Assembly (NCBI GenBank): GCA_000004695.1
Contig: CM000152.2
Coordinates: 1,184,001 to 1,248,000, forward strand
Direction of reading: 5' to 3'
Length of the DNA stretch: 64,000 bases
From: Dictyostelium discoideum
Lineage: Eukaryota
How positions within the stretch are numbered: position 1 is the first letter of the stretch; each line of letters opens with the position of its first letter. Shown one piece after another: positions 8,386 to 51,140 of the stretch. The position numbers and the translations under genes were made by a program. The notes under the pieces are model-generated. The model was given only the letters and a program-made list of their open reading frames with translations. It did not search any database and was not told where the DNA came from.

Positions 8386-9519
8386 TTATAATAGATTTCT
8401 TTGTTTTAACCATTGAATATTTTCATTAATCATATATTCTAAAGTTTGAGATTTAAAATTTAATTGGTTATTTGCTTTGGTTGAATCGATTACAAAATTA
8501 ACACTTTGAATACAAGAGAGGAAGAAAGATTGATAAGGTGTTGGACGTGGTTTTGATTTCGATGCTTTTGTAGTTTTAAAATCATCATCCGCTAAAGAAT
8601 CGGTTGCTTCTGATGAAATTGGTTTAATAGTGGTTGAAGTGGTTGTGGTTGAAGTTCTGCCAAACCATTTGGCCATTAAATCATTCATTTTACCTGTTAG
8701 AATATATTTCAATGGGGAAACGGCAACAACAGGTTTTTCAATCGAGAGTTGAAATAAAACTTGTTCATAAAGTTCCTTCCAACTGATCAATGTACCACCT
8801 ATACAATAGTCACTTCCATTTGGTGCAACCTGTGCTGCTGTTATATGAGCCTTGGCAACCTCGTCCGCTGATGAAAAGTTGGTTTTACCTACGCCCACTG
8901 ACACAGTTTGAGAAGCTTGATGAGCGACCATTAATATAAACGAGCCAACACTATTTTCATCATATTTTCCAATGATAAAGCCCGGTGAGATGATCACCGC
9001 CTCCAATCCCCTACGTATGGCATCCTCCACATATAGCTCGCCAATTCTCTTTGTACGCGAATAACCAGACCTTGGTAGATTCTCTTTTGGGCATTGTTCA
9101 TTGATGATTCTATCTTTTACATCGTAGCATGCTATTGTGCTTGTGTAAATCAATCTTTTTACACCCTTTTTGAAACATGCCTCTACAACATTGGCAGTGC
9201 CATTTACATTGGTTTCGTATTGTTGAATTTGTTGTTCCTTCATTGATTGTTGTGATTCACTTGCATCTAAATCAATGAGAGCTGCAGCATGAAAACAGTA
9301 AAGACATTCATCTGGTATACCTTTTAACAATGATTTATAATTTGTAACATCACCTTTAACCAATATCAATTGATCTTGTTTATTCAATCTCTTTGCTATT
9401 GAATTTAATTCTAATACTTTATTCTTATTTCTATATAATGCATAAACTTGATATCCTTGAATTAATAATTGTTCAACTATATTACATCCTAAAAATCCAG
9501 TTGACCCTGTTACAAAACA

Positions 9520-9591
<72 letters not shown>

Positions 9592-9618
9592 GTTATTTAT
9601 ATTTATATTTTCACTCAT
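8386..9618 (-). CDS. NAD(P)-dependent epimerase/dehydratase (extended SDR) family protein, single exon.
   Basis: The Rossmann motif 'CFVTGSTGFLGCNIVEQL' follows an N-terminal poly-Asn tract. 'YSRTK' is the YxxxK active-site motif. The product is about 410 aa with no in-frame interruption. Confidence 0.7.
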
Positions 9619-9823: not shown

Positions 9824-11937
<2,114 letters not shown>

Positions 11938-13001: not shown

Positions 13002-13064
13002 ATGCTAAATTTTATAGTTTTATTTATTTTATTTTTATTATGTTCACCCTCTTTACAAATTAGT

Positions 13065-13095
<31 letters not shown>

Positions 13096-16000
13096 TTATT
13101 AAATCAATACTAACAAAAAAAAAAAAAATTAATAAAAAAAGATATAGAAACAGGAGAAAAACAACCAAATATTTATAAAAATTATGATATATCAATACTT
13201 AAAAAAGAATATGAATCAATAATTAAGTAAATATTTCCAAAAAAAAAATAAAAAAAAAACTTTTCCAAAAAAAAAAAAAAAAATTAAAAATTTTCTAATC
13301 AACTTTTTTTTAAAAAAAAAAAAAAATAGAGATCATAATATAAATGATGTTGATTATGAAAAAGATTTATCAAATATATATACTCAATTAAACAATATAC
13401 AGTTTTCAAATATTACAAATTTTAATAATTTAGGTTAGTATATTTTTATTTTTTTTTTTTAATTTTTTTTTAATTTTTTTTTTTTATTTTATTAACTCTA
13501 TTTTTTTTTTTAGATTGGTTTTTAAATTTAATTAATAATCAAACAAATATTAATAATGGTATCGAAAACAATAGTAATAATAATGAAAATATTAATGAAA
13601 AATTAAATATTGGTATAATTGTTTCAAGTTTTGAAGGAATGTATTCAACATCTGGTATTGGTACAGTTTATTCTATACTTTCAGATTTTTTAGTAAAGAC
13701 TGGTAAATATAATGTTACAGTAATATATACAAGAGATGATCCACCCGAGAAAAAGAGTTTTTATAATTGGAAAGTCGATCTTAAAGAGAGAGGTATCAAT
13801 TTAGTTCATTTACCATCATCTGTGATTAGAGTTGATAATCCATTGTTTGTTAGAAAATCCTATCAAGTTTATCAATATCTCAAGACTCAATCATTTGATG
13901 TTTTACATTTCCCAGATTTTGAAGGTATGGCATATTATAGTTGTTTGGCCAAAATCAATGGTGTAGAGAAACAATTTCAAAATGTTACCATTGTAATTGG
14001 TCTTCATGGTCCATCTTCTTGGGTTAGTAAATCAAATACAAAAAAGGTCTCACTGGATCACGATCAAGTTGAATTGGATTTTATGGAAAGAAAATCAGTT
14101 GAAATGGCCGATATCATTTGGACACCAAGTAATTATATCGTTAGTTGGTTAATAAAAGAGGTTGGTTGGACAATTCCACAAGAGAATCTTTATCTATTAC
14201 CTTTTCTTCCACCTCCATCTCCATCAACTGCAATCACCAACAATAAGAAAACTTCAAGTTCAATTAAAGAAATTGTATTTTTCGGTCGTTTAGAACAAAG
14301 AAAAGGTATAGTTTTATTTTGTGATGCTTTAGATCAATTGGTTTCAAATTCAAATTATAAATCATTATCAAATTTAAAGATTACATTTTTGGGTCGTTCT
14401 TCTGATATCATCGTTACTGAACCAAATGGTGGTGGTGGAAAGGTTGATGCAATTTATTATATTAGAGATCGTTCAATTAATTGGCCATTTGAAATTAAAT
14501 ATTTAGATGAAAAATCATCAAGTCAAGCAATCGAATATTTAACTGATGATTTACATAAATTGGTAGTTATTCCATCATTAGAAGATAATGCACCTTATAC
14601 TCTCTATGAATGTCTTTACAATAGAATACCATTCATTGCTTCACATCAACTTTCAATGGTACCACTTATTGAATTAAATGATCAATCTACAGTACTCTTT
14701 GAAATTGATTCTAAATCATTATCAGAGAAATTAGATCAAATTTTATTAAATGGTAAACATTTAATTGGTCATCCAATCATTTCAAAAGAAAAATCAGAAT
14801 CTGCTTGGTTAAAATTTTATTCAACTACAATTTTTACAAATTCAATTAAAAATAGAAAACAATTTATTTTAAAATCAACACAACAACAACAACAACAACA
14901 ACCATTAGTAACAATATGTTTAACTCATTTTAATAGACCAAACTTTTTAAAACAATCAATTGAATCAATTGAAAATCAAGATTATAAAAATTTTGAAGTA
15001 ATTTTAGTTGATGATGGTTCAACTTCAATTGAATCAATTGATTATCTTTATTCATTAAAAGATAAATTCAAAGAGAAAGGTTGGAAAATTATTATGACTG
15101 AAAATAAATATTTAGGTGCTGCTCGTAATACTGCTGCCTCTCAAGCCAAAGGTAAATATTTAATGTTTTTAGATGATGATAATTATATGTATCCAAATGC
15201 AATTTCAACCTATGTTTCAATCGCTACAAATACAAATGCCAATGTTGTTAGTTCACCACATTCAATATTTAATTCAACCAATACTCCAATATCAAATGAT
15301 GTTATTATTCAAAGACAATGGGTACCATTAGGTCCATCACTTTCCGTTGGTCTCTTCAAGAATTGTTTTGGTGATGCAAATTTCTTTATTGAAAAGTCAT
15401 CATTTAATTCAATTGGTGGTTTCACTGAGGAAGTTGGTGTTGGTTTAGAAGATCATGAAATTTTGGCAAAACTTGTTATTCAAGGATTTAAACTTTCCGT
15501 TTCAACTGAACCATTATTATACTATAGATTCCATGATTCAGTCAATCAAATGATTTTTACAACCGATTCAAAATCAAATCAAATGCGTTATATTCGTCCA
15601 TTCTCTGAAATCCTAAGTAATGGTCATGTTCCAGTACTCAAGGTTTTAGCAAACAATGCAATTCATGCTCAAAGTAAACGTGTTTTGGTAAACACTTGTA
15701 ATATCACGCTTTCATCGATCCATCCAAATTATGGTCCAACTTCTGGTGGTTCATTGGTATCTATTAGTGGTTCTGGTTTTAATTGTGGCATTAGTAATGT
15801 ATTGTTTGGTGGTGCTGCATGCTCAAATCCAAAGGTTAAAACAGATGGACTCTTAACTTGTACAACTCCTTCCTCTGATAATAATGGTCCAGCTGATATT
15901 GTTGTCAAAGGTTCTGATGGTAGTACCGTTACATTAACTGAAGCCTATAACTATGTTTCAACCATTGCAATTACTTCATGTGCACTCGGTGCAAACAATG

Positions 16001-19000
16001 GTAATTTCTTTAGTTGTGATATCTCTTCTCCAGTTGATACTTCAAATAGGCCTTCATGTAGTTCTCTTTTCTCTTCTGCAACTTTACAAACTTTGGGTAG
16101 TTCTCCAAGATGTGAATATACTGCTTCAAACATTCTAATGGTTACATTGGGTAGTGGTGAAAGTGTATCAGTTGGCCAACAATTGGAATTTTCTCAAGGT
16201 GGAATCACTTCAAAAGATGGTAGTAAGAATAATTATCAAACTATAACATTGGAACCACCACAAGATTCAACTCCAGTGGTAGATATTAAAGCTCCAAATG
16301 TTTTAGATTCATGTAGTCCATTGGTATTAGATGCTAGTCATTCAAAAGGTGGTAATGGAAAAGCATTAACCTATGATTGGTCGGTTAGTGGGGCAGATAC
16401 AAACACTCAATTAAATAATCTATTGGATCAAAATAATGCAACCATAACAATTCCAAATGATCTTTTGTCATCTGGTCAAACTTATACTTTTACACTTAAA
16501 ATCACAAATTGGTTAAAGAAATCTGATAGCGCAAGTGTTTCAGTAACAAAGAAAGAGGGTGAAGTTTTAGATGTAACAATTCAAGGTCCAAGTATTCATC
16601 GTATGGGTGCAATTGATCTAACTCTTAAAGGTAATGCTTCAGTTTCAAGTTGTTCAGTTGATGGCGCTTCACAAAACACCAACACAATCAAATATAAATG
16701 GTCAATTGTTCCAGAGATTCAATTGGCAAGTTCAAAAGATTATACAGGTCCAACTTTAAATATTCCTTCAAGTAAATGGGTTTATGATACAACTTATGTT
16801 ATTACATTAACTGCAACCTCTGGTAAAGAGACAAACTACGATAATGTTACAGTTATCATTTCAAAGAAACCAATCACTGCAGTAATTGATGGAGCCGATA
16901 AAGAATTCCCATTAAATACTTTAATAACTTTAGATGCTTCAAAATCTTTTGATCCAACAACTACTTCAACAGTTTCCAAAGAACTTGATGATTCAACCTC
17001 TACACAACAACAATCATTTACTTATGCATGGAGATGTATCAATAAAAGTGGCAAAGATTGCGGATTAAATTTAGAATCTGAACCAATTATTACATTTAAC
17101 TCTTCAAGATTGAATGTTGGTGTTTTCCATTTCTCTGTTGATGTTACCCCAAATGGTGATGCCACAAGAAGTGGTTCTGCTAGTGCCACTGTTACCATTG
17201 TAAATACTCCAGTAATTGATGTTATTATCTCACCATTACCAACAACCATTGATCCAACTCAAAAATTGGTACTCTATACAGTAGTTAGTGGTAATGATGC
17301 ATCTTCATCAAATTTAACCTATGAATGGAATATGCTCGAAGGTACTCTTGAACTTCCATTAAAACAAGCCTATAGTACCCCAATGAATAGTAGAAATTTG
17401 GTATTAAAGGCTGGTGCACTCGGTTCAAAAGTTGTCTATAGATTTTCAGTAGATGTTAAAAATAAGAAAACTGGTGCCACTGGTAAAGCAATGGTAACAT
17501 TCACCACTGAAGCAATCCCCCAAGGTGGTGATATCACTTGTTTAACAACAAGTGGTGATGTTACCGATACCTATTCAATTACAATGGGCGATCAATGGAC
17601 TGATAATTCTGGTATTAAATCCTACAATTTCCGTTATCGTGTAGGTAGTGGCCCAGCAATCGCACTAAGTGAATCCTCCTCTGATAATTCTATCTCTACA
17701 ATTCTTCCACCAGGTCAAATTACAATAATTGGTTATGTAACTTCAAATGATGGTATCACTGCAAGTAAATCATGTAAAATTCAAGTAAAAGAAGCAAGCA
17801 ACATTGAGGAAGCAATCAACTTTTTAAGTACAACTATAACCAATCCAGATGTTTCACTTTATCAACTTAGTGTAGCATTGAAAATTGCCAATTCATTGGT
17901 TCCTGAAACTTTGAGATTAGCCAAGGCATCATCAAAGAATGTTGTTTCAGAAACTGATGAACAATTCCAAGTTATAATGCCAGAAACTCCACAATCTGCA
18001 AATAAAGTTGTATTTTCAAAGAAACCAACCAATCCATACCTTGAACAACAAGAAGAAACAAAACAATTTGATCAACCAACAGTAAATAAGAAGATGTCAG
18101 CAGCTGCAGTTGCCACTCAAATATCTCAATTTAAAGCCAATGGTATTCGTCAAGTAATGGACCAGGTTGTTAAACAAAAAAAACAACTCTCAAACTATGG
18201 TATTTCAACAGTTGTCGATTTGATATCAACCTCTACAGATACTTCAGCAGTTGTTCATCCATCAACTCTTAAAGAATCAATGAATATTATGAAAGTAGTT
18301 AGTCCAATGATGGTTAAATCACAAGTTTTACCAAGTGATTTCATTTTATCTGTTAACTATTTAAGTAATGTCAATCAACAAGTCATTGGTCAACAATCAA
18401 ATATCACTCAAGGTAAAACTGCACCAACCTATGCTGATATGGTTTATAATGTTTCTTCAGACATTTTAGTGGTATCCAATTCATTGGCAGATGGTATTCT
18501 TCAAAGAACTGCAATTGGTGAAGAACCATTTACAGTTGCAAGTGATAAAGGTTTCTCGATTACAACATTTAAAACTCTACATATGGAATTAAGTAAGAGT
18601 GGTCAATCGATTGGTTTCAAAAAGGATGATGAAGGTCAATCTCTTGATGGTGAAAAACTTGCTTTCACTCCAAAATTCAGTATTCCATCAAGTGTTTTAT
18701 CAAAGAATAAATTAAAACAAACCTCTGAAATCACTGGTAAACTAATTACAGTTCCATCAAATATTCATTTCAATCATAAATCTGATCAAACCATTTTCCC
18801 AAAAACTGTTTCACTTGAACTTTTCAATGGTGGCTCTCAATTATCAATCAATGGCCTTAAAGATCAAATTATCATTGATATGGGAAAACATTCACCACCA
18901 AAAGATAAAGAATTTAAATGTGGTTGGTGGAGCTCCAATAAAAAAGAATGGTTAACAGATGGTTGTTCAACCCATAAAGTAGATGGTAATATTCAATGTA

Positions 19001-19965
19001 AATGTAACCATCTTACAGAGTTTGGTTTAATTGAATTTGCAAAATCCTCTCAAAACATTTGGATCATTATTGGACCAGTAGTTGGTGGTGTTGTATTTGC
19101 AGCTGCAATGGTTGGTACTGTTGTATTGGTAAAGAGAAAGAAAAACAAAAACAAAAAGAACAAATCAAAGAAAACCAAAGAACAAATCAACAAAGAAAAA
19201 GAAGACAAAAAGAAACAAGCAAAAGAAAAGAAAGAAGCTGATAAATTGGAAAAAGAAAATAAAAAGAAAGAAAAAAAAGACTCCAAAAAACAACAAAATG
19301 ATAATGCTGAAGCCTCAGGATCTGGTGATCTTCCAATACCAAAGAATAAAAAAGATAAATCCTTTGGTGATGAAAATGATGTTCAATATATTCTTCAAGA
19401 GTTTAAAGATATCTTTGCTGAAGCTAAAAAGAGAGAACAACTTAAACTCTTGAAAAATCATCAACCAATTTCACCTGTAACTTCAATTGGTAATGTATCA
19501 AGTACAACTTCAACTCCAATAACTTCTACAATTCAACCAGTTATTGATGAATCTTCAAGTAGTAATAATAATAATGATAACAGTAATACAACAACTACTA
19601 CAACAACTACAACTACTACAACAATAAATGATAGAGATAAAGCAGCCAAGACAATTCAAAAGGCATGGAAAAATTATTGTAGTATCAAACAACTTAAAAA
19701 AGAAGCTGAAGTTGAAGAATTACTTGAAAATATTGGTGAATTGTTATCTGATAATGAAAGAGATCCATTTGAAAATTATCAAACATTAGATACTCAAATC
19801 GATGATGATGAAGATAATGATCAACCACAAGACGATAACAATAATGAATCAAACGAACAAATTGAATCAAATGAAGATATTGAAAATAAAGATGAAGATG
19901 TTGAAAATAAAGATGAAGATGTTGAAAATAAAGATGAAGATGAAGAAGATCAAATCGAAAATTAA
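13002..19965 (+). CDS. Large type-I membrane protein: signal peptide, GT4-like glycosyltransferase, GT2 (GT-A, DxD) glycosyltransferase, IPT/TIG, PKD/REJ-like repeats, GPS motif, one TM helix, Lys-rich tail with an IQ motif. Exons 13002..13062, 13142..13226, 13330..13433, 13514..19965.
   Basis: The main ORF (track 13639..19965) is open upstream to 13474. Three short 5' exons can be joined in frame: 'ATG...MLNFIVLFILFLLCSPSLQI' (a signal peptide; donor A|GTAAGT at 13063; the intron holds 'tactaac'), then 13142..13226 (donor AA|GTAAAT), then 13330..13433 (donor G|GTTAGT), then acceptor tttAG at 13513. Domain motifs: 'FFGRLEQRKGIVLFCDALDQL' (GT-B C-terminal), 'VTICLTHFNRPNFLKQSIESIENQDYKNFEVILVDDGS...FLDDDN' (GT2), 'ITLSSIHPNYGPTSGGSLVSISGSGFN' (IPT/TIG), repeated 'LDASHSKGGNGKALTYDWSV'-type modules, 'CKCNHLTEFGLI' (GPS HL|T site), 'IWIIIGPVVGGVVFAAAMVGTVVLV' (TM) and 'AAKTIQKAWKNY' (IQ). 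Confidence 0.8.
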
Positions 19966-20492: not shown

Positions 20493-22040
<1,548 letters not shown>

Positions 22041-24251: not shown

Positions 24252-25409
24252 ATGTCAATATCATCAAGTGAAATTTTAGATAGTTCAAAAAATTATAATC
24301 CAGACGAAGAAGAAGAAATTGAAGAAAAAAAAGATAATATTATAATGAATCCAGTTATTTCAAAATTAGGTGGTTATGAATTTTTTAGAAATGTATTAAA
24401 ATCACCAAAAAAGACAGTAGCACCAATGGTTGATCATACATTTTTAGCATTTCGTATGTTATGTAGAAAGTATGGTGCAGATATGGTTTATACACCAATG
24501 TTTCATAGTAAGAATTTTGCAACATGTAAAACCTATCGTAGAGATTACTGGTCAACCTGTCCAGAAGACAGACCCTTGGTAGTGCAATTTTGCGGCAACG
24601 AGCCAGAGTGGGTGGTAAAGGCCGCAAAATACATCGAGGATCATTGCGATGCCATAGACTTGAATTTGGGTTGTCCACAGCAAATTGCACGTCGTGGTAA
24701 CTATGGCAGCTTCCTCTTGGACAAGCCTCATATCATTTTACCAATAGTCCAAGAGTTGCACAAACACATCAAGGTGCCAATATTTTGCAAGATCAGGTTA
24801 CTACCAAACCTTGACGATACCATAAAGTTGGCATTGCAATTACAAGAAGCCGGTTGCCAATTATTGACAATCCATGGCAGAACAAAGGAGCAGAAAGGCC
24901 ATAACTCTGGTATCGCAAATTGGAAAGCAATTCGTACAATTAGGGAACAGCTTTCAATACCTGTCATTGCCAATGGCAGTGTTGTACAATACGAGGATAT
25001 CGATAGATGTTTGGAGGAGACCGGTGCCGACGGCGTTATGTCGGCAGAGGGTATCTTGGCCAACCCATCATTCTTTTCTGGTTTAAAAGTACCAATTTAC
25101 CAAGTCGCTCGTGAATACATTGACTTTACAGAAATCTATAAAACTTCAATTCATGTCACTCGTAGTCATATCTTTAAAATGTTAAAAGAGAAACTCGATG
25201 TCTACAGTGATCTCAGAGAAACAATGGGAGCAACACATACCAATGATGGTTTCAGAGATATCATAACCGATTTAGAAACTCGTGAAAAAAATAATTTACC
25301 ACCTGTCAAAATTTTAACAAATAAACAAAAAAGAGAATTAAAACAAAAAGAAAATAATGATATCGATTCTTTAAAAAAACAAAAACTAGATGATAATAAT
25401 AATAATGAA

Positions 25410-25470
<61 letters not shown>

Positions 25471-25559
25471 TAAATGAAAATAATAATAATAATAATAATA
25501 ATACGGAAATTAAAAATGAAGATGAAAAAGAAAAAGTTTTAATAAATAATTCAAATTAA
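24252..25559 (+). CDS. tRNA-dihydrouridine synthase (DUS1-like), single exon.
   Basis: 'ADMVYTPMFHSKNF...CPEDRPLVVQFCGNEPEWVVKAAKYIEDHCDAIDLNLGCPQQIARRGNYGSFLLD...IFCKIRLLPNLDDTIKLALQLQEAGCQLLTIHGRTKEQKG' is near-collinear with the human DUS1L catalytic core. There is an Asn-rich C-terminal tail. Confidence 0.85.
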
Positions 25560-30677: not shown

Positions 30678-33558
<2,881 letters not shown>

Positions 33559-34918: not shown

Positions 34919-34954
34919 ATGAAAACATCAAAGGATAGTAGTAATAGCAATTCA

Positions 34955-35009
<55 letters not shown>

Positions 35010-35825
35010 GTTTAAATGGAACATACTCATCAAAATCATTATCACCACCAACATCACCAAAACAAATGAGTGGAAATAGTATAATAAGTAATAGTACTGG
35101 CAATTTAAGTAGTGGCAGTGGTAGTGGTAGTAGTAGTGGTGGAAATAAAAAATTTATAAATAGATCATTCAATACATTTATTGATTTTATAAAGAAACCA
35201 GCAAGAAGGAATTCAAAAGCACATAATACACCTCCACCTTATCCTGAAGTTGATACTGGTTTTGGATATTTTTTAGAATTAGATAGTAAACCACCAAAAC
35301 CATTTGATGAAAAGGATGATCCCATACATAATAGTACTGGTTCAACTGATAGCTGGGAAGGTGATTTAAATTCAAGTGGTGGTGGTGGTAAACAACCCCA
35401 ACAAACACAACAACAATCAAGTGGTGAAAATTTAAATAATTCTTCAGATAGAAATAACAACAGTAATGAAAATAATCAAATAGTGGACGATAATAGTAAT
35501 GTATTTAATAAAGGAGTGGTTGTACAAACAGTTCCAATGACAGAGATTGGCTTGTTTCCAGTATCTTTAATGATGGCACAACAAAGGGCTGAACATCCAA
35601 TTAATGTTGAAGATATTGAATCGGATGTCCAAACTTGTTCAATACCAAATAGTAAACCATTATATAGTTCATTAGGTTGTTCAACAAACTCTTCAAATTC
35701 TGGTTCTTCAATTTCCGCTCCAAATATTACTTTCCAATCTTTTGGAATTTCCCCTGTAAATAACAACAACAATAATAATAATAATAGTAATAATAATAGT
35801 AATAGTAATAGTAATAGTAATAGTA

Positions 35826-35906
<81 letters not shown>

Positions 35907-36792
35907 GTACTGTAAATAGTAATAATAGTAGTTTAAATAATAGCCCAAGATATCTTAATTCTTCTTCATCTCCGAGATCTATGCAACATCTATCTTCTAA
36001 AATTACAACTACTACCACCACAACAACTACTACTACCACCACAACTTCTGATGATAATAATGGTAATACTAATAATAATATAAGTAATAATAATAATATC
36101 ATTAATAATAGCAATAATAATAGTAATAGTAATAATAATAACAATAATAATATTAATAATACAAATCATAAATTTAAAACAATGGAAAAATATTTTTCAT
36201 CAAAAGAAAATTTCCCAATACCATTTCCAAAGTTAAAAGATGAATTAGGTGTAATAATTGAAAATTCAAGTAATAAAGGATATGTTGGAGGAAATAAAGG
36301 TAGTGAAGATAGAAGAAAAAAGATTGAACAAAAAAAGAAACAAGTACCAGCACCAGAAATGAAAGCAACCAAAGAGAAATTTATAGAAACCATTACTGAT
36401 CCAACCACTTTAAATTCATTTAGATCATTCATGGAGAATACACAAAGTAATGAAAATTTAGAATTCTTTTTAGAGGTTAAACGATTTAATACAATACAAG
36501 ATCAAGTCTTATTAAAACATACTTGTGATGACATTTGGAGAAGATTCTTTGATGATCTTGCAGTTACACAATTATGTGTTGAATCATCACTTAAAAAATT
36601 AATTAATAATCGTAGAGAGAATCCAACTCATTCAATGTTTAATGAGGTTTTAGATCTTTTATTAGATGATATTGTTTGTGATGCTTTTAGAAATTATATA
36701 TCATCACCTTTTAATCCAGAATGGAAAAGTGAATTTAAAAAGAAATTTACAAATAATACATATAGTACAACAACTCAACCAATTAATAATTT

Positions 36793-36824
<32 letters not shown>

Positions 36825-38296
36825 GTTCTACTCCTCCCAATAATTATAGTAGTAGTCCAATAAAACAAAGTAATATAAATAACAATAATAATAATGCTAG
36901 CAGTAGTAATATTGCAAGCAGTAGTAATGTAAATAATAATAATAATAATAGTAATGGTAGTAACACTAGTAGTTCACATCATAGAGAAAGATTAGATAAT
37001 ATAAAAGGAAATAGAGAAAGAGTAGATAGTAATGGTAAAGAAAGATCAATTGATAATAAAGATATTTTATCATTATTAGAAAGTAATTTAAGTAACCATA
37101 GTAATAGTAGTTCAAATAGTAATGGAAAAGATAAAGATAAAGACAAAGATAAAAATGAAAACACTACTGACAATTCAAATAATAATAATAATTCAAATAA
37201 TAATTTAAATAATTTAATTATAAAAAATAATTTTAATAATATTCTTCAATCACCACAAATTGTATCAAAAATTAATGAAATTTTTAAAGATTCAAATAAT
37301 TCACAATTATCAATTTCAATAACATTAGATAATGATGAAGATCCAACAATATTTCATTTGGATGAAAGTGATATGGAAAGTTTAATTGAGGAGGTTGTAA
37401 AGGATAATATATCAGTTCATACAGAGATTAGTTATAGTGATGTTTCAATTCATAAATGGATTGCTTCGGGTTCATCTGGTAGAGTTTATAATGGACAATA
37501 TAAAGGTAAGGATGTTGCAATCAAAGTACTTGGTCCTGAAGTTTGTGTACATTTCGATTTGAATGAATTCAAGAGAGAAGTTGCTTTAATGTCAATTTTT
37601 AAACATGATAATTTAGCAAGGTGTTTGGGTGCTGGTCAATATGATGACAAATATTTTCATTTGACAGAGTATTGTCACAATGGTTCTTTGTTTAGTTATT
37701 TAAGGGATCAGCGTAATAATATTAGTTTTGGTCAAAGATTACATTTTGCATTGGGTATTGCAAGAGGAATGCGTTATCTTCATTCAATGTCAATCATTCA
37801 TAGGGATTTGAAATCAATGAATATCCTATTGACAAAGAGATTAAAAATAAAGATTGTAGATTTTGGTACCTCTAGAGTAGCAAATAAATATAATATGACA
37901 ACCCATGTTGGCACCCAAGCTTGGATGGCTCCTGAGATTTTCACTTCAAGAACCTATACGAATAAAGTTGACGTTTATTCATATGCAATCATTTTATTTG
38001 AAATTTTCACTAGAAAATCTGCATACGATGAAAATGCAAATATTAACATTCCAAATATGGTGATGAAAGGTGAAAGACCAGAACTTCCAAAAGATATGCA
38101 AACTTCAATTTCAAATATAATTAAAAAATGTTGGCAACAAAAACCTTCAAATAGACCTTCATTCATTAAAATAGTTGCATATTTAGAAAGTATAATTTAT
38201 CCATCAGTTTCAAATAGTTTAGGTTTAGTTGCCTCAACTTCTTTCTCTTCTTCTGCACTTTGGTCTGGTCAAATTTTAGCACAGCCAAAAAATTAA
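34919..38296 (+). CDS. rckA: RGS-domain-containing Ser/Thr protein kinase (TKL group), single 1125-aa ORF.
   Basis: The RGS domain is 'FRSFMENTQSNENLEFFLEVKRFN...WRRFF'. The C-terminal kinase shows 'GSSGRVYNGQYKGKDVAIKVL', 'HRDLKSMNILL', 'DFGTSR' and 'GTQAWMAPE'. The N-terminal half is long Asn/Ser-rich low complexity. Length and architecture match the Dictyostelium RGS-kinase RckA as I remember it; this was not verified. Confidence 0.75.
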
Positions 38297-48002: not shown

Positions 48003-51000
48003 TTATTGAATTTTATAAACTGTTTTCATGAATTTTAATAATTGAATATCTTGTTTTGTTAAATCTTCAGACCAACCTTCTTTAAGAGCATCCAAAGATT
48101 CACGAGTGATTTTAGACATCCATTGTTTTTTATCATCAAAGTGTCTGTAAATTGTAGTTTTAGTGTTGTTATCATCGATGGCAACAGAGACGACATCATC
48201 TTTTTTGGCGAGGGTAACATCTTTTTCGTTGAGTTTAATACCAATGACTTTACCAACATCAGCGCAATTTGATTCTGGTACACAAATTGGAGTACCAATA
48301 CGAAGAGTACCTTCTTTAACACGAACACCAACAAGAATTGGATTTGAATTTCTGAAAACGTTAGTAACCTCCAAAATACATGGCCAAACACAGATACTAG
48401 CGGTTTCAGCACGAAGTTTCTCTTTGATAGCACCGAAATGTTTCTTTAATTTCTCCTCGAATAAATAGATTGTCTCATCAGAGAGAACTTGAACTTTCAT
48501 TTCATTGGCGGCTTGAATGGCAGATTCTTCAATCTTTACATCGAAAGCCAAGAGAATTGCGTATTTTGGATCCTTATCTAACATGATACTTGCGTTCATA
48601 ATGTGTTTCTTGTGAACTGGACCAATGGCGACATTGGCGACTGGAATCTTGATCTTTTTGAGGAAATTTAAAAAGGCTTCCAAAGAACCAAGAGTAGAGG
48701 CTTGAACAGACACACCAATACCAGAGGTTTCGACATCATTGAGTACAGAATCGACTTCACGTTTAGCTTCGGCTCTAATCTTTTCGATATCGTCATTTGG
48801 ACCAACGACATGAAGTGAAGTACCTGGAACAGCTTTTTCAAGGCCTGGTGCAACGATTTTAATACCCATGGCAGCACGAATACTCTTATGATTGATGAAT
48901 TGTGATTTAACACGAGATTCACGAAGTGGTGGTGGAGTGAGTAAAGAACGAATAGAAGTTTCAATTGGACCATTGAAACCGGATACTACAATCTTATCAC
49001 CTTCATTCAAAGTACCATTTACCAAGACAACATCAATGGTTGTACCAAAACCTTCGATGACTTTAACTTCCAAGAGTGTACATTGGAGTTGATTTGTGAA
49101 TTCTACTTTATCAAGCATTAACTTTTGCATCAATTGAATGACTACCAACATTAAATCTGAAATACCTTCACCAGTGTTGGCAGAGGTTGGTACGAGAGAA
49201 ACGTATTTTCTATGATCTTTATTACGCCAGTAGAGTTCAGCATTCAATTCTTGACCGGCCAAAGCTGCAATGATATCCTTAACTTTGTAATCAAATTCTT
49301 GAGCAGCAGATTTTGATTGAATCTTGTAGGCTTCTTTAAAGTCTGTATTTACACATGGCTTCCAATCGTAAATTCTATCGACTTTATTTAAGGCAACAAT
49401 GAATGGTGTTTTTCTCATACGTAAGAGATTGATGGACTCTAAGGTTTGAGCTTGTAAACCATGCATAATATCAATGACTAAAATTGCCAAATCACAAAGA
49501 CCTGAACCTCTTGAACGTAAATTGTTGAAAGATTCATGACCTGGTGTATCAATGAGTAAGAGACCTGGTAATTTAAAGTCCATTTTAATCTTTTCAGCAA
49601 ATGATTTGGTTTGTTCTTTAATTGCATCGACTGGAATAAAAGAGGCACCAATTTGTTGGGTGATACCACGTGCTTCACCACCTTGAACGTTGGTATTACG
49701 AATTTTATCCAAAAGACTTGTCTTACCTGTATCGACATGACCTAAAATACAAATGATTGGTGAACGATATGATTTATCTGCAAAGGTTGTAGTTGGATCT
49801 GTAGTTGGAATGAGTGCTGCTGCGGCTGCTGCTGCGGCTGCTTTTGCTTTCTTCTTTTCCTCTTTTGCTGCTAATCTCTGTGCTTCCTCTTCCTCCTCTT
49901 TTCTCTTGGCCTCCTCTTCCTTCTTCTTTTGAATCTCTTCAACGGTTTCATAATCATCATTATCCCAACTATCCATAACCTCAACTACGTCGTCCTTTGG
50001 TGCTGATGTTGGTTCTTCAATCTTTAATTTTTCGACTGATTCTGTAATACTTGAGACTTGATTTTGTTTTTTACCTCCACTCTTTGTTTTATTTGTTGAT
50101 TTTTCTTTCTTTTCACCGACTGCTGAAATGTTTACACCCAATTTTGCTAATTTTGCCATTCTATCAGCTTCGGCGGCTGCGCCAGCTTGTTTCTCTTTCT
50201 TTTCTGCTCTCTTTTTAGAGTTTTCAATTGACTTTAATCTTGCTTTTTCATCATCAATAATCTTTTGTTCAGCAGCACGTTTCTTCTCTTCCTCTTCTCT
50301 TATACGTTTTTCCTCCTTTTCACGTGCAATTCTTTCTTCTTCTTGTCTTTGTTTTAATAAAAATCCACTCAATACCTCTGGTTCCTCTGGTTTCTTTGGT
50401 GCTGGTTTTTTAGCTTGTTGTTTTGCTGCTGATGGTTTTGCTGCTGGTGGTTTTTTGGCATTATTTTTTTTATTATTATTATTTTGTGTTGGTTTGGTTG
50501 GTTTCTCTTCTTCCTCTGATGATGATGATTCTTCTTCACTTTCAGAAGATGATTCAACAGCTGCTGCTTTTTTAGCTGGTGCTTTTTTATTTTGTTTTGC
50601 AGCTGGTTTTGATGGTTTCTTTTTTGTGTCCTCTTCAGATGATGATTCTTCAGATTCTGATTCACTCTCTTCTGATGATGATTCTACAACTGGTTTCTTT
50701 TTATTATTATTATTATTGGTTGGTGCTACTTTCTTTGATTGTTTTGCAGCTGGTTTTGATGGTTTCTTTTTAGTATCTTCTTCAGATGATTCTTCAGATT
50801 CTGATTCACTCTCTTCTTCTTCTGATGATGATGATTCTACAACTGGTTTCTTTTTATTATTGGTTGGTGCTACCTTTTTTGATTGTTTAGCAGCTGGTTT
50901 TGATGGTTTCTTTTGAACTTCTTCTTCAGATGATGATTCTTCAGATTCTGATGATGATTCATCTACTGGTGCAAATTTAGAAGTTGGTTTTTTTTTTGAA

Positions 51001-51140
51001 ATTGGAATATCATCACTATCACTATCACTATCTGATTGTTGTTGACCTTTTTTATGAAGTTTTTCTGCTTCTTCACGATCTTTATCAGCTTCACCACTAT
51101 CCCAATAATTATCTTTTCTAACTCTTTGTTTTGGACCCAT
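48003..51140 (-). CDS. eif5b: Translation initiation factor eIF5B (IF2 homolog), single exon, 1045 aa.
   Basis: The GTPase domain shows '[39 protein letters not shown]', '[11 protein letters not shown]' and 'IVALNKVDR'. The beta-barrel domains II to IV follow. The N-terminal 450 aa are acidic, Ser/Lys-rich tandem repeats. Confidence 0.9.
   Translation of the reverse strand: [1045 protein letters not shown]
50560..50960. repeat. Intragenic tandem repeat of about 142 bp in roughly 2.7 copies within the eIF5B N-terminal region.
   Basis: The unit 'gcagctggttttgatggtttcttttt..tcttcagatgat..tcttcagattctgattcactctcttc..tgatgatgat..tctacaactggtttctttttattatt..ggttggtgctac.tt.tttgattgttt' recurs at about 50601, 50746 and 50891. 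It encodes the repeated '[43 protein letters not shown]' units of eIF5B. Confidence 0.85.

Follow-up and report, generated by a model that had tools for sequence, protein, structure and literature searches.

To our knowledge, GAIN and REJ domains are familiar almost exclusively as membrane-proximal parts of adhesion G-protein-coupled receptors (adhesion GPCRs) and polycystins, and their ancestral role is debated. The sea-urchin protein suREJ1, reportedly described by Moy et al. in 1996, is said to consist of a large REJ-plus-GPS ectodomain with a single C-terminal transmembrane (TM) helix and a short tail. This work concerns a gene of Dictyostelium discoideum at positions 13,002-19,965 of a 64,000-nucleotide stretch of DNA (GenBank assembly GCA_000004695.1, contig CM000152.2, positions 1,184,001 to 1,248,000 of the forward strand). 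The whole stretch is called the window here, all positions are counted from its first letter, and all features of the gene lie on the + strand. The locus is one dictyostelid gene and encodes one single-pass type I membrane protein. In this protein, the same stalk bears an enzyme cassette of two glycosyltransferase (GT) domains under apparent strong catalytic constraint, with one TM helix, in a genetically easy organism. Going by this description, suREJ1 has the closest overall topology to the C-terminal half of the protein, in which both REJ and GPS were found. However, the heads of suREJ1 are EGF and C-type lectin domains rather than enzymes, and PKDREJ has 11 TM helices.

Polycystin-1 (PC1) and PKD1-like proteins share with the Dictyostelium protein the PKD-type Ig repeats, REJ, and a GAIN domain with its GPS motif right before the first TM helix (for the description of PC1, see PMC4999191). 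The tail of PC1 contains a helical partner-binding segment (PMC4999191), and the Dictyostelium tail likewise has a helical segment. PC1 has 11 TM helices and PLAT/LH2, TOP/channel-like, C-type lectin, LRR, and WSC domains, whereas the Dictyostelium protein has one TM helix and none of these domains; conversely, its two GT domains occur in no polycystin. Adhesion GPCRs (latrophilin, BAI, CELSR) have in common with it the GAIN fold, the HL/T site (the slash marks the predicted cut), and the T-x-F-x-L/V-L/I strand that follows. Nevertheless, these receptors have a seven-transmembrane (7TM) domain and a HormR domain, and the Dictyostelium protein is without either; the tethered-agonist logic lacks a receptor here. 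An initial sequence-only reading of the locus described a polycystin-1 or adhesion-GPCR ectodomain arrangement. The order PKD-REJ-GPS is indeed present, but the PLAT domain, the 11-TM/channel block, and the 7TM domain are not: the PLAT, polycystin-channel (PKD_channel), and 7TM (7tm_2) families gave no Pfam match at E <= 1 on the long open reading frame (ORF). A PC1 orthologue was rejected as an identity for the protein, given the single TM helix after GPS and the missing PLAT and PKD_channel matches, and so was an adhesion GPCR, given the lone TM helix and the missing match to 7tm_2.

The gene may have been touched upon in earlier reports. A D. discoideum GAIN domain (gi66815909) was reported by Arac et al. 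2012 (PMC3321182), whose text does not discuss its partner domains, and amoebozoan family-2 GPCRs have been described as lacking a GAIN domain (PMC10445921). Lima et al. 2014 stated that PKD1 is absent from Dictyostelium. In Allan et al. 2024, DDB_G0289409 is named, as yet uncharacterised, as a “putative PC1 homologue” that might be a partner of Pkd2. The statements of 2012, 2014, and 2024 most probably concern the gene in the window because only one such D. discoideum protein cluster was found. The identifier DDB_G0289409 occurs in one paper only. NE81 (DDB_G0289429, ending in CLIM) was sought as a neighbour of DDB_G0289409, and no such ORF is present in the window. The protein is already in databases, where its orthologues carry the UniRef label “GAIN-B domain-containing protein”, and no functional study of it was found in the literature. 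Its architecture is both conserved and unusual. As a caution, the Dictyostelium “putative PC1 homologue” should not be read as a PC1 orthologue.

The gene model was built by reading the upstream DNA and trying splice joins to set the exon borders. The ORF at 13,639-19,965 counts 2,108 codons from its first ATG, and upstream of it the frame is open back to 13,514. Joining four exons between 13,002 and 19,965 gives a coding sequence of 6,702 nt and 2,233 codons with zero internal stops; the remaining two frames of the gene region contain 113 and 281 stops. The three introns (79, 103, and 80 nt) have GTAAGT, GTAAAT, and GTTAGT donors, AG acceptors, and a GC content of 6-10%. In the window as a whole, the GC content amounts to about 20% and rises to about 30-35% in islands, as is typical for a dictyostelid genome. 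Exon 1 (13,002-13,062) provides the ATG and the signal peptide MLNFIVLFILFLLCSPSLQ..., with a hydropathy peak at residues 1-23 and a probable cleavage after SPS (residue 17). It is followed by intron 1 (13,063-13,141; 79 nt, GTAAGT..AG, 8% GC) and by exon 2 (13,142-13,226), which carries the linker motif NYDISILKKEYESII that is kept in orthologues; only this join leaves the frame open. After intron 2 (13,227-13,329; 103 nt, GTAAAT..AG), the linker continues in exon 3 (13,330-13,433; ..VDYEKDLSNIYTQLN..). Intron 3 (13,434-13,513; 80 nt, GTTAGT..AG) precedes exon 4 (13,514-19,965), which contains the remainder of the coding sequence and ends with the TAA stop at 19,963-19,965. The sequence-only reading had placed three short signal-peptide exons at the start of the gene. 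There are three short 5' exons, but the signal peptide lies in exon 1 only, and exons 2 and 3 encode a conserved linker. The single frame of about 2,200 codons claimed there was confirmed by the 2,233 codons without an internal stop and by collinear full-length orthologues, transcript assemblies among them, and every string quoted in that reading was located at its place.

The exact 2,233-residue sequence is absent from the protein collection. Its nearest entry is P0031 (KAM9963093.1, D. discoideum), an independent NCBI annotation of another D. discoideum assembly. The two share the N-terminus and match over their full length at 97% identity, with 33 gap positions. Most length differences between the strains are caused by homopolymer and short-repeat tracts, such as the poly-Gln tract between the two GT domains (14,878-14,898), the poly-Thr tract in the tail (about 19,570-19,610), and the threefold NKDEDVE repeat, also in the tail (about 19,880-19,960). 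One could suspect that such a protein is an annotation or assembly artefact, in which a GT gene and a REJ/GPS receptor gene were read through as one or foreign 5' exons were attached. In favour of this suspicion, the exon joins of the gene were read from genomic DNA alone. However, the expected stop spacing at the base composition of the region is 12-13 codons, and about 2,150 codons in a row would stay open by chance with a probability of about 1e-78. The same architecture is collinear and full-length in 18 orthologues, among them those assembled with Trinity from Clastostelium and Echinostelium transcripts, and the independent model P0031 shares the N-terminus and the exon joins. In addition, an ectodomain with TIG, REJ, and GAIN domains requires a signal peptide, and exon 1 provides one. 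The fusion artefact is effectively refuted and is regarded as extremely improbable.

The domain order is as follows: signal peptide, linker of about 95 residues, GT-B/GT4 domain, GT-A/GT2 domain with a DxD motif, IPT/TIG domain, PKD-like repeats, REJ, GAIN, one TM helix, and a tail of 277 residues. Pfam was run on the long ORF, whose residue numbers plus 125 give those of the full-length protein. In ORF numbering, the matches were Glyco_transf_4 (residues 5-184; 27.0 bits, just under the cut-off of 28.5), Glycos_transf_1 (210-373; 31.9 bits, cut-off 26.4), Glycos_transf_2 (PF00535; 425-549; 87.8 bits, cut-off 23.3), TIG (691-765; 41.4 bits, cut-off 20.9), K319L-like PKD in four stretches (47 bits, cut-off 27), REJ (PF02010; 1004-1412; 273 bits, cut-off 25, profile positions 2-451 of 452), and GPS (PF01825; 1760-1797; 33.7 bits, cut-off 22.5). 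Glycos_transf_1, Glycos_transf_2, TIG, PKD, REJ, and GPS, as proposed, were thus all supported by Pfam, and both GT folds were also supported by structure prediction and fold search. Two confident AlphaFold models back the domain assignment. The TIG domain and the GPS motif just before the membrane were predicted correctly from the letters, the latter with its cleavage triad intact. The suggestion of four or more PKD/REJ modules sharing an “LDAS” signature is correct as far as the four K319L-like stretches, the REJ domain, and the four occurrences of YxW (residues 1037, 1144, 1254, and 1353) are concerned, but LDASxS itself occurs only twice (residues 1022 and 1223).

Since the whole protein contains only two hydrophobic segments (residues 1-23 and 1930-1958), it is considered a single-pass type I protein with a signal peptide. 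Behind the signal peptide lies the linker (13,142-13,610; residues 21-115), which is eukaryote-specific and carries the motif NYDISILKKEYESII ... DYE.DL. All orthologues have this motif between the signal peptide and GT4, and the bacterial homologues, whose alignment begins at residue ~111, are without it. The IPT/TIG domain (15,709-15,933; residues 816-890) gives PDB sequence matches to the IPT domains of Met and plexin. It is followed by a Cys-containing spacer and the first PKD-like (K319L-type) modules (15,934-16,647; residues 891-1128), recognised by Pfam and by their LDASxS and YxW signatures, and by the REJ domain (16,648-17,874; residues 1129-1537), whose Pfam match is essentially full-length. 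The TM helix (19,057-19,131; residues 1932-1956) is the sole internal hydrophobic segment and is kept in all orthologues. The expected single TM helix after GPS with a Lys/Glu-rich tail was thus found, the charged tail being 277 residues long.

The enzyme cassette is, as judged from sequence conservation, the most constrained part of the protein. The GT-B/GT4-like domain (13,609-14,763; residues 116-500) contains the Gly loop SSFEGMYSTSGIGT (13,624-13,668), the motif GRLEQRKG (14,284-14,307), and a D-x7-E element in place of the canonical E-x7-E (14,584-14,610). Structure prediction and fold search gave a two-Rossmann GT-B fold closest to GT4 enzymes. The sequence-only reading had recognised a GT4-like C-terminal fold; the Glycos_transf_1 match agrees with this, but it is not the C-terminal half alone, as both GT-B halves are present. 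The GT-A/GT2 domain (14,911-15,663; residues 550-800) has a GT-A Rossmann-like fold and carries VDDGS (15,007-15,021), a DxD motif in the form DDD (15,172-15,180), and the further motif GLEDHE. In all 18 orthologues, the GT4 Gly loop, GRLExRKG, and PSLxDNAPYTxxEC, as well as the GT2 motifs VDDGS, FLDDDN, and GLE(D/E), are invariant or nearly so, and most GT motifs, VDDGS and FLDDDN among them, are also invariant in the bacterial homologues. With VDDGS and FLDDDN conserved and Glycos_transf_2 far above its cut-off, the proposed DxD-type GT2 glycosyltransferase is well supported. In the deepest comparisons, the identity amounts to 51-56% for GT2, 42-47% for GT4, 24-27% for REJ, and 12-23% for GAIN. 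Both GT domains are inferred to be catalytically active. Two GT domains per chain are also found in two bifunctional polysaccharide polymerases, the K4 chondroitin polymerase K4CP of E. coli and the heparosan synthase PmHS2 of Pasteurella, and the GT2 domain matches theirs. However, those enzymes combine GT-A with GT-A, whereas the Dictyostelium protein combines GT-B with GT-A, and a polymerase activity is putative here.

The closest relatives of the cassette outside the orthologues are bacterial. The next matches after the orthologues were proteins of 2,000-2,700 residues with one GT4 domain, two or three GT2 domains, and TPR repeats. They are collinear with residues 111-804, that is, with the whole cassette of about 690 residues, at 33-39% identity, so that the bacterial cassette is almost as near in identity as the deepest eukaryotic orthologues. 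These giant GT4-GT2(-GT2)-TPR proteins (P0018-P0027 and those of loci L001-L005) have the same collinear cassette and invariant residues as the Dictyostelium protein, but they are cytoplasmic, with extra GT2 copies and TPR repeats, and have no signal peptide, TIG, REJ, GAIN, or TM helix. The full cassette was found in 3 of 185,579 species-representative prokaryotic genomes, namely two metagenome-assembled genomes (MAGs) of Verrucomicrobiota, one of them an Opitutus, and one MAG of Acidobacteriota; the other matches covered GT2 only. At four of the five loci examined, the giant GT gene is part of a flagellar cluster, with genes for flagellin, FliD, FliS, FliW, CsrA, and large methyltransferases adjoining. 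The giant bacterial proteins probably represent a flagellin glycan assembly system, as suggested by this gene order. In bacteria, a comparable design is known from FlmG of Caulobacter, in which a flagellin-binding TPR module is joined to a GT module (PMC7591256). FlmG and GmaR of Listeria (PMC9638930) share with the Dictyostelium protein the logic of a catalytic GT module combined with a non-catalytic targeting module, and they are likened to it by design only. Both are cytoplasmic and have one GT domain, in contrast to the two of the Dictyostelium protein. Taken together, the distribution and similarity suggest that the cassette may have been taken from bacteria by a eumycetozoan ancestor and that the TPR module was replaced by a eukaryotic stalk.

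Some particulars of the bacterial loci can be added. The giant GT4-GT2-GT2-TPR genes occupy positions 10,001-16,360 of L001, 10,001-16,288 of L002, and 8,001 to about 9,970 of both L003 and L004, which are Verrucomicrobiota MAGs and metagenome contigs. The methyltransferases beside them have 480-1,000 residues and are multi-methyltransferases.

The orthologue search covered 5.8 billion proteins. Full-length collinear orthologues were found in D. cf. discoideum, D. citrinum, D. firmibasis, D. dimigraforme, and D. purpureum, and further ones in Polysphondylium violaceum, Synstelium, Cavenderia, Acytostelium (partial), and Heterostelium. Others come from Clastostelium recurvatum and Echinostelium bisporum (Trinity transcriptomes) and from several EukProt and JGI sequences. 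Nearly all of them, including the transcript-derived ones, begin with a hydrophobic signal-like segment. As several of these orthologues are transcript assemblies, the signal peptide and the GT cassette are located on one message in those species. A screen of amoebozoans for the same architecture, which had been proposed as a check, revealed the whole design in dictyostelids, Clastostelium, and Echinostelium. The protein is not a one-off chimera but a member of a conserved, database-annotated family. Two entries deviate from the pattern, and both are probably gene-model errors: P0011 (Heterostelium album) has a TPR-like start and no signal peptide and misses the N-terminal part of GT4 and the HLT stretch, and the tail of P0005 (D. 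purpureum) diverges abruptly past KQLRKEAEL.

The stalk has relatives of its own. When residues 1049-1959 were searched exhaustively with HMMER against 1.84 billion representatives, 453 relatives emerged, mostly matching the REJ part only. The best non-orthologue matches to REJ, with or without GPS, carry other heads, for example, the filamin/GEX2-N protein P0064. The best GAIN-only matches are GPS-TM-protein-kinase receptors with LRR or TIG ectodomains (P0097, P0114, and P0186). Judging from these sequences, REJ and GAIN are reusable membrane-proximal modules in protists. No GT head on REJ or GAIN was found outside the family of the Dictyostelium protein in either the orthologue search or the HMMER scan. 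Two candidates for such an architecture outside the family (P0060 and P0061) were rejected as truncated members of the same family. The kinase receptors P0097, P0114, P0186, and P0162 are single-pass proteins with an LRR/TIG ectodomain, one or two GPS motifs with HLT or HLS, a TM helix, and a cytoplasmic TKL-type kinase.

The GAIN domain (17,875-19,041; residues 1538-1926) comprises a helical subdomain A and a beta-sandwich subdomain B, with the Pfam GPS motif at 18,916-19,029. An AlphaFold2 model of residues 1525-1934, built with 15 orthologue segments, reached a predicted local distance difference test score (pLDDT) of 78.4 and a predicted template modelling score (pTM) of 0.79 and shows six helices followed by a beta sandwich. 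Foldseek against the PDB gave six significant matches over about 320-350 columns, all of them GAIN domains, including BAI3 (1.4e-11), BAI2, CELSR1, latrophilin-1, and latrophilin-3 (ADGRL3; 6.6e-8); the next match had E = 0.02. The predicted autoproteolysis triad H1916-L1917 / T1918 (19,009-19,017) lies in a four-residue turn that joins the last two strands of the model (model strands 385-390 and 395-402). The proposed AlphaFold check thus yielded a true GAIN fold with the triad in the canonical tight turn. The protein has the GPS pattern C..WW..W..C..CxC.HLT. Dictyostelids and Clastostelium strictly retain HL/T and the T-x-F-x-(L/V)-(L/I) strand after it, within the common pattern C..W..W..C..CxC.HL/T.F. 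In P. violaceum and in Clastostelium, the second GPS cysteine and the fourth have been lost together, as would be expected if they form a disulfide. On the basis of the motif and the model, autoproteolysis at HL/T is plausible in Dictyostelium.

The cytoplasmic tail (19,132-19,962; 277 residues) is Lys/Glu-rich next to the membrane, continues with poly-Thr/Asn, and ends with the acidic NKDEDVE repeat. Within it lies a conserved module (19,624-19,791; residues 2121-2176) of the form AAxxIQ+xW+ ... E(V/I)ExLL ... LL(S/A)D ... DPF. This module of about 55 residues is conserved from Dictyostelium to Clastostelium as AA..IQ(K/R).W(K/R), E(V/I)E.LL, LL(S/A)D, and DP(F/L), the third of these being invariant, and has 12 invariant columns over nine orthologues. 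The sequence-only reading had named an IQ calmodulin-binding motif in the tail. An IQ-like element is indeed conserved, but its score for the Pfam IQ family (PF00612) is 12.7 bits, with the cut-off at 20.3, and it matches profile positions 2-14 of 21, that is, the first half only. IQ is the family most often matched by the orthologue tails (seven of nine, best E = 0.0015), never above the threshold. The motif is best described, from its sequence, as a conserved incomplete IQ-like helix, and regulation by Ca2+/calmodulin through the tail is speculation. The EVEELL segment presumably fits the acidic dileucine pattern [DE]xxxL[LI], and DPF is taken here to be an adaptor-ear-type motif. These motifs suggest control of trafficking at least as much as control by calmodulin.

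The anatomy of the protein is well secured, and its mechanism is a matter of interpretation. The following reading is preferred, as a whole with moderate confidence: the type I membrane protein would have a lumenal, active GT pair of bacterial derivation, self-cleavage in the GAIN domain, and a tail that governs trafficking or partners. A GT4-GT2 cassette would have entered the eumycetozoan ancestor from bacteria, and its TPR substrate-recognition module would have been swapped for a TIG-PKD-REJ-GAIN-TM stalk. Both GT domains would be on the lumenal side of the secretory pathway, with nucleotide sugars and Mn2+ at their disposal. Nucleotide-sugar donors are lumenal, and therefore an activity inside the secretory pathway is more likely than the action on a cell-surface or extracellular-matrix glycan that had been proposed at first. 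The GT4 domain, of a retaining family, and the GT2 domain, of an inverting family, may make two different linkages on a glycoconjugate that is secreted or at the surface, or they may assemble an alternating polymer. In dictyostelids, self-cleavage of the GAIN domain at HL/T would leave an enzyme-bearing ectodomain of about 1,900 residues attached non-covalently to the TM/tail fragment, with shedding as a possible outcome. The tail block, with its IQ-like helix, Leu-Leu pairs in an acidic context, and DPF, may govern partner binding or trafficking.

Several observations weigh against this reading. Most Golgi GTs are type II proteins, and a type I anchor is atypical for a Golgi GT. In the E-x7-E motif typical of GT4, the second Glu is invariant here, but the first is invariably replaced by Asp, a conservative variant. 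None of the NCBIfam equivalogs scores above its cut-off, which makes prediction of the donor and acceptor impossible. The transfer from bacteria is deduced from distribution and similarity only, and the Acidobacteriota locus has no flagellar context. The H-L-T triad is lost in Echinostelium and four other relatives, which are deep-branching and retain the other architecture. As it is absent in these five relatives, cleavage and shedding cannot be the conserved core mechanism of the family. Moreover, an intact triad is needed but not enough for GAIN cleavage (Arac et al. 2012, PMC3321182).

The lost triad also speaks for an account in which the protein is a plain membrane-anchored Golgi or post-Golgi GT, with TIG-PKD-REJ-GAIN serving as a rigid spacer or oligomerisation stalk that stays uncleaved in vivo. 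Uncleaved GAIN domains exist, as illustrated by the BAI3 and BAI2 structures among the top matches, and the stalk evolves much faster than the enzyme. Nevertheless, the retention of H-L-T and of the following strand across dictyostelids and Clastostelium, as well as the position of the triad in the tight turn of the model, speaks against a mere spacer, and this account is considered unlikely. Somewhat further from what was found stands a PC1-like adhesion or mechanosensory receptor, in which REJ-GAIN and the tail signal, perhaps with Pkd2 and calmodulin. Its GT domains would act mainly as lectin-like heads for binding acceptor sugars of the matrix, of prey, or of neighbouring cells. The arrangement of REJ followed by a membrane-adjacent GAIN/GPS is that of PC1 and suREJ. 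That the GAIN module does serve single-pass signalling receptors is illustrated by the GPS-TM-kinase receptors, its best relatives when GAIN alone is considered. The “putative PC1 homologue” of Allan et al. 2024, probably the gene in the window, fits as well, and so does the IQ-like tail helix, given that the PC1 tail binds calmodulin (PMC4999191). However, the single TM helix and the lack of PLAT, the 11-TM/channel block, and 7TM argue against such a receptor, as do the absence of PKD1 from Dictyostelium reported by Lima et al. 2014 and the subthreshold score of the IQ motif. The GT cassette is the most constrained part, with DxD, VDDGS, GRLExRKG, and D-x7-E invariant, which fits catalysis better than mere binding. 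A PC1-like receptor thus appears distinctly improbable.

The preferred reading of a lumenal GT pair on a cleavable stalk can be extended. A captured bacterial flagellin-glycosylation pair could have been mounted on an ancestral polycystin-type stalk as a self-shedding GT, with GAIN cleavage and force- or ligand-driven dissociation timing its release. The release would take place in secretory vesicles, the spore or stalk wall, or the slime sheath. This extension is offered as a tentative idea and is itself rather unlikely. If it is true, the original job of REJ-GAIN was the regulated release of ectodomain cargo and not the activation of GPCRs or channels, and Dictyostelium would be a tractable system for the roles of polycystin-type ectodomains. 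Even without shedding, if the GAIN domain cleaves, the protein would be the first GT with a membrane attachment governed by GAIN autoproteolysis and would allow GAIN function to be examined cleanly, with neither a 7TM nor a channel partner involved. The apparent derivation of the cassette from bacterial flagellin-locus GTs is a concrete and testable instance of horizontal transfer in which domains were then fused into the secretory pathway of a eukaryote, and the cassette gives a lead on an unassigned step in the synthesis of eumycetozoan matrix, spore-coat, or stalk glycans.

Other features of the window lie on both sides of the gene. About 3.4 kb upstream, the ORF at 8,386-9,618 (- strand) encodes an NAD-dependent epimerase/dehydratase (PF01370, 1e-31) of the sugar-nucleotide-modifying type. 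A SAP-domain ORF (10,636-11,937) lies between it and the GT gene, and a functional link between the epimerase and the GT gene may be a coincidence. The ORF at 10,275-10,592 (- strand) ends in about 26 cysteines that come from a trinucleotide repeat and is most likely non-coding or a low-complexity artefact. Downstream are the LUC7 C-terminal exon (20,493-20,963, - strand), Dus (24,252-25,559, + strand), the Suv3 helicase (31,597-33,558, + strand), and an eIF5B/IF2-type GTPase (48,003-51,140, - strand). The ORF at 34,919-38,296 (+ strand) encodes a protein of 1,125 residues, in which a protein kinase domain comes after an RGS domain and which resembles RckA, an RGS-domain kinase of Dictyostelium.

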